NCBI GenBank assembly: GCA_951406725.2
Contig: OX597817.1
Location: forward strand, 71,362,001 to 71,426,000
Reading direction: 5' to 3'
DNA from: Octopus vulgaris
Taxonomy: Eukaryota
Length of the DNA stretch: 64,000 nt
Under the pieces are notes generated by a model. The model saw only the letters and a list, made by a program, of their open reading frames with translations, was not told the DNA's origin and searched no databases. This document shows, in pieces, positions 32,057 to 53,495 of this stretch; within the stretch, counting starts at the first letter, position 1, and every line of letters starts with the position of its first letter. A program made the position numbers and the translations under genes.

Positions 32057-32890
32057 GATTGCCTTAATGGAAGAATAATACCAGATTGGATGACTAGAGG
32101 GAGCATAATGCTCCATATGAAAGATAAAAACAAGAGCAATACAGCTAGCAATTATAGACCAATCACTTGTATACCATTAGCGAGGAAGCTGTTAACAGGA
32201 ATGCTTTCAGAAAGCATTAACGAGCACCTTGACAACCAGAGTTTACTGCCAGAAGAACAGAAGGGTTACAGGAAAACGGGCTAGAGGAATGCACGATCTA
32301 TTATACATAGTTAAAGCAGTTTTAAATTAAGTAAAAGCTACAAAGAAAAATATATGGATAGATTATAAGAAAGCCTATGACTTAAGCCCACGCTCATGGA
32401 TAAATGAATGTTTGAATATATTCAGCATAGTAGACAACATACGAGAATTAACTAGCTGTAGCATGAAGAAATGGAAAGTAGATCTCAACTCAGGTGACAC
32501 AGTCTTAGGAAAAGTTAATATCAAGAAAGGAATTTTCCAAGGAGACTCGTTATTCCCTTTAATATTTGTCTTATGTTTGATCCCCCTCAGTTTAGTATTA
32601 AGGAAGGCAAAGACAGGGTGTCAGTTCAGAAATAATACGAGGAAAATTAACCATTTGCTCTACATGGATGATCTGAAGCTTTTTAGTAAGAATATGAGAA
32701 AGATAGATTCATTAATACAGACTATAAGACTCTTCAGCAAAGATATAGACATGGAATTCGGCATAGATAAATGTGCAATATTAGTCATGAGAAGGGAACA
32801 GGTAGAATTATTGAAAGGTGGAGAGAGTTATAAGTATCTAGGAGTATTAAAATCTGACGGAGTTCTAACTACAGAAATGAAAACGCACAG
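32057..32890 (+). pseudogene. Decayed reverse transcriptase of an R4/Dong-type LINE
   Basis: NYRPITC, EEQKG, WIDYKKAYD, GIFQGDSL, HLLYMDDLKL, MEFGIDKC and YKYLG motifs across frameshifts (ORFs 32090-32284 and 32412-32918). Confidence 0.93.
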
Positions 32891-32951
32891 GAGTACATCA
32901 GAAATATCAAGACTGTGACAAGAAAAAACATTGCATAGGCAATACTCCAAA

Positions 32952-48125: not shown

Positions 48126-48173
<48 letters not shown>

Positions 48174-48309
48174 CGGAGATGTACTTGCATAGCAAGTGAT
48201 CTGATCTGAGATCGTGTGCTGGAACGAAAATAATTGCAGCGCGGAAAGTGTTTATAAGCCATTTTAGAAACACACAAAAACCGTTAGATTCACTTCAACA
48301 TTTAAATTT

Positions 48310-48365
48310 AATTTGTCAAAATATTTTCGTCGCTTTGAGACCGCGACCTGTTCACTGACAAAATT
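48310..48365 (-). ncRNA. Type I minimal hammerhead ribozyme, G3:C8 core variant (all helices intact)
   Basis: TTTGTCA [GTGAACA] G GTCGC-GGTCTCAAA-GCGAC [GAA] AATATT T TGACAAA. Confidence 0.65.
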
Positions 48366-48378
48366 CCGTGCAGCACAT

Positions 48379-48434
48379 AATTTTGTCAGTGAACAGGTCG
48401 CGGTCTCAAAGCAACGAAAATATTTTGACAAATT
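48379..48434 (+). ncRNA. Second copy of the variant hammerhead (one helix II mismatch)
   Basis: Same motif with GCAAC in place of GCGAC. Confidence 0.6.
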
Positions 48435-48507
48435 AAATTTAAATGTTGAAGTGAATCTAACGGTTTTTGTGTATTTCTTAAATTGCTTATAAACACCTTC
48501 CACGCTG

Positions 48508-48569
<62 letters not shown>

Positions 48570-48660
48570 GCAGCGTGGAAGGTGTTTATAAGCAATTTAA
48601 GAATTACACAAAAACCGTTAGATTCACTTCAACATTTATATATATATATATATATATATA

Positions 48661-48832
48661 TACGACGACGGGCTTCTTTCCACTTACCGTCTACCAAATC
48701 CACTCACAAGGCTTTGGTCGCCCCGAGGCTATAATAAAAGACACTTGCCTAAGGTGCTACTCACGCAGTGGGACTGGACCCGGAACCATGTTGCTAGGAA
48801 GTAAACTTCTTACCACACAGCTACACCTGTGC
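48661..48832 (-). mobile_element. SINE family B, 5' half
   Basis: ACGACGGGCTTCTTTC...AGACACTTGCCTAAGGTGC...GCAGTGGGACTGGACCCGGAACCATG. Confidence 0.85.
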
Positions 48833-50882: not shown

Positions 50883-51467
50883 GAGAAACGTTAGCACACC
50901 GGGCGAAATGCTGAGCGGTATTTCGTCTGCCGCTACGTTCTGAGTTCAAATTACGCCGAGGTCGACTTTGTTTTCATCTTTTCGGGGTCGATTAAATAAG
51001 TACTAGTTACACACTGAGGTCGATATAATCGACTCAATCCGTTTGTCTGTCCTTGTTTGTCCTCTCAGTGTTTAGCTCCTTGTGGGTAGTAAATAAATAG
51101 GTATTTCGTCTGCCGTTACGTTCTGAGTTCAAATTCCGCCGAGGTCGACTTTGCCTTTCATCCTTTCGGGGTCGATTAAATAAGTACCAGTTACGCACTG
51201 GGGTCGATATAATCGACTTAATCCGTTTGTCTGTCCTTGTTTGTCCTCTCAGTGTTTAGCTCCTTGTGGGTAGTAAAGAAATAGGTATTTCGTCTGCCGC
51301 TACGTTCTGAGTTCAAATTACGCTGAGGTCGACTTTGTTTTCCTCCTTTCGGGGTCGATTAAATAAGTACTAGTTACACACTGGGGTCGATATAATCGGC
51401 TTAATCCGTTTGCCTGTCCTTGTTTGTCCTCTCTGTGTTTAGCCCATGGTGGGTAGTAAAGAAATAG
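50883..51467 (+). mobile_element. SINE family A trimer (partial head plus 183/184/183-bp units)
   Basis: Units start GTATTTCG at 50918, 51101 and 51285; each ends AAATAG. Confidence 0.95.
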
Positions 51468-53495
51468 GATTGGCTTGGAACTATACGTCATTATTACATT
51501 ATTACATTATTACATTTCTGTTGTCGACAGTTTGACATATTTCTTGTGTCATGTGATCCAGTCGTTTAATCGCGTGAGTCATGATATTTAGCGAGGTGAG
51601 GAATTCGATGTGCGGGCAATTGGGCAGTTGAATCTTGTACAACCATGTACCATCTAGATTCAGGTACGTGATTGTACCAGATCGTCGAATATTGTACAAC
51701 CACGTACTCCGAGGTACGAGTAACTACGCCGTCGAATGTGGCACAGATATTCATTCATGACTCCAATGAATATCTATACTAAAAGACTTCAATCAAAAAA
51801 ATTGAACTAACACGTACGAGAATCATTATAACCAACCTTATTTTTAGTAAGCATCTTTAGGAATTAAGACGCTTGATGTGGATCGAATGGATCAAAGAGA
51901 ATGTACTATTAATTAATATTGCAAGTTATTCTTGTATTCTTTCACGGGTTACAGTCATTGAACGTGGCCATGCTGGTGTAGCGTTTTTTATAATGAAGAT
52001 GGTTGCATTTTCTTTTCTGTCATTTTTGCATCTAATATTTTAAAGAGCTTGTATTTCGCCCTTAGGTGCTCCTTCCGACTGATATAGAGATAGGATTGTT
52101 GATGCATAATAGGCTACCTACGTGAGTGTCACTACTCCACTAGCTCACAGCAGTCTGCAGAGCTTATACGCCAGAACCTCTGATTCGCAAAGTTGGCCAC
52201 TTGGCGTCCTGTGATCTTTGATGACGTCACTGAATTGTCAATCTGTCATCAGTTACATCCACCTTCTTGCAGCCAAAGGCCTAGTTCGAAACCATGGTCA
52301 CGGAAGCCTTATTAAAAACTGCCAATTAGAGTCTGCTGAGGTTAGAACACGTAATGACAGAGCCTTTACTTGCTATTCTAGCTAAAACACTACACGCTAC
52401 CCAATCGAATGACAGTTATTCTACCACTTCGAAAGAATGCTAGTCAATGTGACCCTGGGCGAGATTCGAACTCAGAATGTAACCAAATACCACAAATTAT
52501 TACCGATTCCGTTCTATATCGACTCATATATAATATGATATTTTACTGACTAATTCTTCTTAGTAAACATTTTAAGAAATGAGAAACAACTTAATTAAAA
52601 TGAGAAATTTATAGATATTAGGTATGTACTTAATAAGCTTATATTAACTTTTCCAATACGTCTGTAACTCAATTTTTTATACGTTAGTATTGGATGTGTT
52701 GGTAAGAATCGCTTCACAATCACATCGTTTTGGGGCTAGTTCCACTGTCTTCTGATCTAGCCCCAGGCTAACCAATGTTTTGTGAGTGGAAACTGTATAT
52801 AAACTGTATAGAATTTCGGTGGGGTGGAAAACTGTACACACACACACGTATAGTTTGTGTTTGCTTGTATGCGTGTCTTTGTATGTGTGTTTGTTCTCTA
52901 ACAGCTTGACAACCAGTGACGGTTCGTTTACTTCCTCGTAATCTAACGATTCAGCAAAAGAGAGCGATAGAATTAGTACCAAGCTTAAAATAAGTCCCAA
53001 TATAGATTTGTTTGACAAACCTTACAATACAGTGCTCCAGTATTGAAACTAGAAGAAGTGCCGTCAGAGAAGGGTCATTGACCATAACGTTTACATGTCC
53101 TAATCTAACATTAGTGGGATCAATCAGGCTATTTCAACGAACAGTGCAAATATCTGTAGAACAAACGTCTGCGGGGAAAAATATAGTTGGAGAAGAAACC
53201 AGACGTCTGATACTAGTCACCTCATAATCAATTTTAAATGTATTAGTCTATCAATAGGATTGTTTGCATAGTAAATACATTTGTATTTCTAATATTGATA
53301 GTTGTTTTATGAAAGACTTCATTTCTTCGCTCAGAAGAACATTATAACCTGTGAAGACATTACAGTTATTCTACTGTCTGATATTGCAGCCAAATGACAT
53401 ATTTATCTACAAGTACACACACGTGCGTCCATACATAGATACAAAGGCGCATAGGTACGTAATACACACACACACACACACACAAACACACACAG

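Follow-up and report, generated by a model that had tools for sequence, protein, structure and literature searches.

A palindrome in the Octopus vulgaris genome as a probable head-to-head insertion of a Penelope-like terminal repeat with predicted G3:C8 hammerhead motifs

A palindrome in a 64,000-nucleotide stretch of the Octopus vulgaris genome (contig OX597817.1, positions 71,362,001 to 71,426,000; this whole stretch is hereafter the window) is very probably the terminal repeat (pLTR) of a Penelope-like element (PLE), 5'-short and inserted twice in head-to-head orientation, with a predicted G3:C8 hammerhead in each arm and a mechanism of formation that we propose below. Taken separately, its origin from a PLE is close to certain. 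The repeated unit consists of the pLTR and the first codons of an open reading frame (ORF) with reverse transcriptase (RT) and GIY-YIG domains, its insertions have PLE anatomy, and its copies decay neutrally. The locus as such is a decayed PLE stub of an ordinary kind; modestly new are the lineage-fixed natural G3:C8 core and the piling of 5' ends just upstream of the ribozyme. The features of the locus are as follows.

48126..48170, no strand: (TA)n target microsatellite, left flank (right-flank (TA)n at 48510-48563)
48171..48371, minus strand: tail-bearing arm, from about +8 of the putative start site through the ribozyme and 5' UTR to the first 30 ORF codons of the pLTR
48171..48232, minus strand: one-sided tail of 62 nt (about 60 nt), ORF codons ~11-30, outside the coordinates of an earlier sequence-only reading
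48171..48262, minus strand: first 30 codons of the PLE ORF by translation, ATG at 48262
48312..48362, minus strand: intact minimal type I hammerhead motif with G3:C8, extra G, 5-bp helix II and palindromic helix III
48369..48511, plus strand: tail-less inverted arm, from about +4 of the putative start site to ORF codon ~10
48382..48432, plus strand: second hammerhead copy with a helix II mismatch at 48413, predicted cut between 48425 and 48426
48564..48644, minus strand: third partial arm, without ribozyme (48434-48644 matches its own reverse complement at 96%)

The inverted repeat comprises two arms of 139 nt (48233-48371 and 48373-48511) that are 94% complementary with 8 mismatches, confirming the palindrome that the sequence-only reading had placed at 48233..48511. 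That span covers the inverted repeat, but the insertion reaches 48171 and the third partial arm also falls outside it. The repeat unit measures 206 bp (48171-48376), extending 62 bp beyond the left arm as first delimited, and the tail-bearing and tail-less arms overlap by 3 nt at 48369-48371. The third arm carries the private changes of the right arm at 48473 and 48484 and probably arose afterwards, when the right arm was duplicated locally by fold-back across the (TA)n; the window accordingly holds a second palindrome, at 48434-48644, centred on (TA)n and sharing the right arm. Target duplication is unreadable at this locus, because the (TA)n flanks mask any that may exist. Beside the insertion, at about 48660-48830, lies a SINE-like repeat that we take to resemble an octopus tRNA-derived SINE. 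Tblastn recovered no further pieces of the parent PLE ORF within the window, and a reverse-transcriptase fragment at 32331-32918 (plus strand; PF00078, 49.6 bits) is unrelated to the parent PLE by the same method. Three direct repeats of about 185 nt each occupy 50917-51468.

On the minus strand, the hammerhead was found as the sequence-only reading had described it, with its helices, GUGAACA core, extra G, AAUAUU palindrome and U17. Helix I (7 bp) is formed by 48362-48356 and 48318-48312, the core GUGAACA lies at 48355-48349 with the extra G at 48348, and helix II (5 bp, opened by G10.1-C11.1) pairs 48347-48343 with 48333-48329. These are followed by GAA (48328-48326), the palindromic AAUAUU (48325-48320) and U17 (48319), with the predicted cut between 48319 and 48318. 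U4, G5, A6, A9, G12, A13 and A14 of the core, A15.1-U16.1, H17 and a Watson-Crick 3:8 pair are all present, the canonical C3:G8 identity itself being absent. Helices I and II (with G10.1-C11.1) and the palindromic helix III are shared by the minus arm and the majority of the family, and the minimum-energy fold of the minus-strand motif consists of helices I and II (-14.5 kcal/mol). A strict hammerhead descriptor, accepting any Watson-Crick 3:8 pair and run on both strands, matched once in the window, on the minus strand, and 0 times in 150 first-order Markov copies of the window; the minus-strand motif is therefore not a product of chance. An Rfam search gave 79 matches at E<=10, among which the hammerhead family was absent; all scored below the gathering score and most were miRNA hairpins matching the palindromes. 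The identification as a minimal hammerhead of Penelope type, with the 3:8 pair swapped to G3:C8, is upheld. The further description of a ribozyme in each of two 133-bp arms holds for the minus-strand copy alone: the plus-strand copy has an A at 48413, giving GCAAC for GCGAC and hence a C.A mismatch in helix II of the CpG-decay type, and an intact helix II is absent from its predicted fold.

The family was sought across the assembled genome (2.8 Gb, 227 contigs). Exact matches number 1,062 for a 33-mer across the core and helix II and 4,280 for a 25-mer from outside the ribozyme, giving at least 4,280 arms, and the reversed control of each had 0 matches. Sequencing runs of six organism labels contain at least half of the sampled words of the unit, no RNA sets being listed among the runs that contain them. 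Copies extending upstream number 1,126 (matches with at most 1 mismatch) and lead via a CA-rich stretch to an ORF, with PLE protein matches in 4 of 20 such loci. At L238, a 530-aa ORF with YVDD and a GIY-YIG domain (PF01541, 23.1 bits, above the cut-off) is followed by a 3' UTR of about 1.1 kb and then by the unit, all on the same strand. The RT of parent copies, in which Pfam RVT_1 found no match, was recognised by YVDD and by tblastn to a Pfam-positive PLE RT, and a protein search yielded two groups of matches, 49 with identities of 74-100% and 92 with identities of 56-58%. The unit terminates 9 of 11 stretches downstream of RT matches of the first group and runs into the ORF in 4 of the 9 stretches upstream of its N-terminus (L271, L272, L273 and L276), with a frame open from the ATG in L271 and L272. 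From this continuity it follows that window positions 48262-48171 are the first 30 codons of the ORF. Their frame continues into the RT ORF in L271 and L272, and their translation resembles, by eye, the N-terminus of a sister PLE ORF and the tail of a second family (family B). The tail-bearing arm (48171-48371) shares 94% identity, over 215 nt, with the 3' end of the RT/GIY-YIG copy L243 and 89% with the pLTR-ORF junction in L272. The linkage to RT/GIY-YIG ORFs that the sequence-only reading had proposed as a check was thus found: the unit both ends such elements and runs into the ORF start, as in a pLTR that forms a partial tandem including the start of the ORF. The single ORF with RT and C-terminal GIY-YIG is found in the parent copies, not in the window.

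The window's layout recurs with arms of 1-6 kb in L236, L237 and L254. The parent protein is 55% identical to an intact 1,312-aa sister PLE; among the scored matches there was no intact full-length ORF of the parent family, the longest being 1,025 aa and 5'-truncated. It carries a CX3CX2C linker, Neptune and Nematis being recognised by CX2-5CxxC before the endonuclease together with placement in the RT tree. The parent RT in L254 (1871-4945, minus strand) has about 130 aa between motifs 3 and 4, with about 60 in a 781-aa family; the stretch is like an insertion in fingers, situated in a PLE with a C-terminal endonuclease, and is missed by Pfam RVT_1. The abundant 781-aa GIY-YIG PLE was rejected as the parent, the unit occurring in only one of its 30 loci (L097), as an unrelated insert. 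Inward-facing pairs at L031 and L032 (2.7 kb apart) were likewise set aside as large segmental palindromes without a PLE ORF. Together with the L047 group (30 loci, e.g. G000:C1:4381630-4384654), these two represent one stub copied inside a larger repeat in at least 30 copies; the repeat carrying the L047 stub is several kb long and often palindromic, and it inflates copy counts. Many other palindromic repeats of 170-430 bp without a detected hammerhead were observed at L113, L099, L100, L109, L112 and L118.

The anatomy of short copies was assessed in the first 100 of the 4,280 exact 25-mer matches (contig C1, first 84 Mb). Of 90 loci fetched, 35 were dropped (3 same-locus duplicates and 32 copies inside larger repeats), leaving 55 loci with 89 arms. 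An inverted partner arm is present in 33 of these, and exactly one arm bears the tail in 29 of the 33. Target duplications of at least 7 nt were found at 19 of 24 testable loci and, outside TA runs, at 11 of 15 loci compared with 8 of 210 mismatched pairs. Variants are shared at 2.3% of sites between arms of one locus and at 0.6% between loci. The one-sided tail, inverted copy, variable duplications and TA targets therefore correspond to the published anatomy of EN+ PLE insertions (PMC3846280, PMC8557442), which have a head-to-head inverted 5'-truncated copy, a tail of first ORF codons on one end, target duplications of about 8-10 bp, microsatellite targets and a small junction overlap. The octopus family departs from the insertions described there in its tail of about 60 nt rather than 30-40, in consisting mostly of stubs and in the clustering of its 5' ends at a single site. 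The centre of the palindromes is not fixed, and fold-back priming from a constant central hairpin was rejected on that account.

Two other classes of repeat were weighed against a PLE insertion. A MITE with long terminal inverted repeats, resembling a ribozyme only incidentally, would account for a short palindrome in (TA)n with thousands of copies, yet the ends are asymmetric, the centres and the lengths of the duplications vary (the latter 7-15 nt in non-TA loci) and an RT ORF is contiguous with the unit, with neither symmetric fixed ends, a fixed-length duplication nor a transposase parent; we give this origin practically no credence. A pLTR derivative of SINE- or retrozyme-like character, non-autonomous and replicating independently from its own short master copies, draws more support, as short copies far outnumber long ones, the 5' end is sharply defined, and animal retrozymes have been proposed as pLTR derivatives (bioRxiv 10.64898/2026.07.22.740005). 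However, sequence and subfamilies match the ORF-linked copies, arm lengths form a continuum up to kilobases, and the sole tandem array is a degenerate one of 3.4 kb (L234), the 55 loci being dispersed single or inverted arms; we consider such a derivative improbable. Non-LTR retrozymes share with the octopus units the character of short non-coding hammerhead repeats related to pLTRs (PMC7229834; bioRxiv 10.64898/2026.07.22.740005), but are described as direct tandem arrays, whereas the octopus units are dispersed inverted stubs contiguous with an ORF-bearing parent.

The sequence-only reading had also reasoned that a read-through transcript would bury the ribozyme in a long hairpin, and had proposed on these grounds a self-silenced ribozyme/dsRNA module. 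The first part agrees with prediction, either strand folding as one long hairpin (-198 and -225 kcal/mol), and sequestration would follow physically from such a fold; small numbers of RNA reads from another data set (organism G, below) moreover cross inverted junctions. An evolved module, in which the palindrome is kept so that the antisense buries each ribozyme and provides regulated cleavage or dsRNA, is nevertheless highly improbable, as nothing appears to maintain the palindrome. Junctions differ in all 33 two-armed loci, 22 of the 55 loci have no partner arm, none of the 33 retains two intact motifs, and 14 of 56 spanning arms are intact. At the locus studied here the two arms have mutated independently, one of the changes breaking helix II. 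Substitutions in short copies affect 3.6% of structural and 3.8% of other positions (p=0.79); an apparent signal of selection on ribozyme positions (4.8% versus 7.2%, p=1e-4) was discarded, having gone once indels and subfamily polymorphisms were excluded (p=0.79). Neutral decay, variable junctions and the lack of doubly intact loci therefore identify the supposed module as a by-product of integration rather than an evolved device, the inverted arm being the normal inverted 5'-truncated copy of PLE insertions (PMC8557442, PMC3846280).

The 5' ends of the arms point to how the stubs arise. Relative to a single site some 16 nt upstream of helix I, 41 of the 89 fall at -7..+9, including 22 at +1..+3, and only 2 of 89 arms extend further upstream. 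In 6 of 11 arms, the base before +1 is a G that is not genomic (p=0.006). A copied cap would leave an extra non-genomic G, and part of these Gs could be microhomology with the partner arm. We infer that the hotspot is a transcription start and that the stubs derive from the first pLTR-ORF junction as run-off cDNAs; in Drosophila, the Penelope pLTR is known to hold an internal promoter (PMC2377424). Alternatively, the hotspot could be a splice acceptor: the sequence upstream of it fits, with a branch-like CTAAC, pyrimidines and CAG, and a Penelope intron terminates at helix I (PMC4209133), but a common upstream exon was absent from the 37 flanks examined. The cleavage site is spanned by 76 of 89 arms. 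Ends at the site itself were rejected as a signal, with 1 of 89 arms beginning there, explainable by microhomology; a cluster of 7 arm 5' ends lies 4-7 nt downstream, within an AT palindrome. The 3' ends fall at two places, ORF +~30-35 and +92, and fit the two internal sites at the ORF start where reverse transcription of an anole PLE begins in vitro (PMC11167929).

We propose that transcription of the PLE would begin about 16 nt upstream of helix I, that the PLE protein would cut AT-rich DNA, and that reverse transcription would start inside the RNA at ORF +~33 or +92. At the first pLTR-ORF junction, synthesis of the cDNAs would run out at the 5' end of the RNA once they measure about 145 or 205 nt, and head-to-head joining of two such products would leave a palindrome tailed on one side only. 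Ribozyme action is likely restricted to parent transcripts, where the ribozyme would process tandem RNA slowly, helped by an AAUAUU dimer, by protein or by both; most templates would be copied uncut, and the ribozyme in the palindrome would be sequestered and inert. The Poseidon PLE of Anolis (PAc; PMC11167929) similarly has two internal reverse-transcription starts in the ORF start, AT-rich targets and uncut RNA as the main template. As far as PAc is described in that source, the octopus family differs in the confinement of its whole ribozyme to the 5' UTR, about 56 nt upstream of the ATG, in the CX3CX2C linker and long insertion between RT motifs 3 and 4 of its protein, and in a G3:C8 pair that is natural here and engineered in PAc.

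The 3:8 pair is G:C in 57 of 63 arms of the family. Comparison of an ORF-linked younger subfamily (24 arms) with an older one (125 arms, duplicates retained) revealed differences at 5 of 9 loop II positions, which may represent a single event, and at 0 of 42 structural ones; in the rest of the UTR they differ at 3 of 49 positions (p=0.25 against the structural positions). Within the family, variation bearing on the fold is limited to a helix I A/G polymorphism that keeps a wobble (24/77) and to loop II turnover. Between families, the 3:8 pair and helix II pair 3 are swapped and the helix III palindromes differ while the architecture is kept, suggesting from comparison of the sequences that the motif is a real RNA structure. 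The 781-aa PLE of this genome combines U3:A8 with the helix III palindrome ACAUGU. In family B, U3:A8 goes with AAUU, and U-A mostly replaces C-G at helix II pair 3, which is paired in 18 and mismatched in 10 of 34 arms. The 3:8 pair of the sister PLE is C3:G8, and its position 9 is C at all 5 loci checked. As to these families themselves, L103:578-4613 and relatives form a PLE family that is young, many of its 781-aa RT/GIY-YIG ORFs being intact, and its U3:A8 minimal hammerhead lies within about 200 nt of the 3' end. Family B (L101:9490-9580, minus strand; L209-L233) consists of stubs with inverted copies and a tail encoding a PLE-like N-terminus, while the sister PLE (L255:463-4398 with its 3' end; L256-L259), which has an asparagine-rich insert and a hammerhead-like motif, retains ORFs of 1,312 aa in intact form. 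In L007, canonical C3:G8 minimal hammerheads occur in a different repeat, two copies of which lie on opposite strands (~1177 and ~2986).

The metazoan PLE minimal type I hammerheads (PMC4209133) share with the octopus motif the pLTR location, an extra nucleotide between 9 and 10.1, G10.1-C11.1, a palindromic helix III and the common U17, and opposite-strand pairs 100-700 bp apart are already on record there. The octopus family is distinguished from those reported in that work by G3:C8 in place of C3:G8 (with a U3:A8 variant), by a G as the extra nucleotide where the supplementary consensus has H, and by a helix I of 7 bp rather than 4-5 bp. U3:A8 is a natural swap on record (PMC3088659, PMC4209133). 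In the literature searched, where G3:C8 appeared solely as an engineered partial rescue, we found neither a natural G3:C8 hammerhead, of which an earlier report may exist, nor hammerheads in octopus, and the portion available to us of an octopus repeat annotation that lists PLE families contains 0 occurrences of 'hammerhead' or 'ribozyme' (PMC13282606).

The ribozyme is probably active in the RNA of the parent, in a slow and assisted manner. Cleavage of a PLE hammerhead was regained in part when the C3G/G8C swap was engineered into it (PMC11167929), and the anole PLE hammerhead needs protein for cleavage (PMC11167929; review PMC8495972). A swapped dimer via AAUAUU is by the model only 0.6 kcal/mol better than two monomers. 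For two RNA runs from a single study (organism G), about 6% of each run was compared with L272. The short unit is covered, in both orientations, by 1,414 and 1,111 reads, of which 88-89% continue into unlike sequence and a few cross inverted junctions. Neither run showed a pile-up of read starts or ends at the cut site, which in fragmented cDNA of mixed copies is a weak negative. The pattern fits passive transcription of scattered copies, with cleavage neither shown nor excluded. A catalytically dead remnant, kept otherwise as a promoter-proximal element or protein-binding site and leaving the PLE origin unchanged, is the less likely reading, though one with several points in its favour: copying crossed the cut site in the great majority of arms (76/89, above), the sister family has C at position 9, and, as reported for the anole PLE (PMC11167929), ribozyme mutants leave insertion in vitro unimpaired, zero reads end at the cut site and the double 3:8 swap rescues cleavage merely in part. 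Against it, core, helices and 3:8 pairing are kept across families and subfamilies while loops and helix sequences change, congruent with selection on a catalytic fold.

We tentatively suggest, as a possibility rather than the expected outcome, that a fixed natural G3:C8 hammerhead is active but tuned down in a recently mobile PLE lineage, the stubs being run-off cDNAs that extend from cap to start site. If so, the stubs would record the in vivo promoter, both reverse-transcription starts and the rarity of cleavage before copying. The clustered ends of the stubs provide in vivo support for internal initiation of PLE retrotransposition and for an uncut RNA template. Searches for PLE ribozymes that are fixed on C3:G8 or U3:A8 miss whole lineages, here with at least 1,062 exact 33-mer copies, and a natural series of G:C, U:A and C:G in one genome is material for asking why PLEs keep a slow ribozyme. 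PLE stubs also explain many short palindromes of animal genomes that are mistakable for MITEs or microRNA hairpins.
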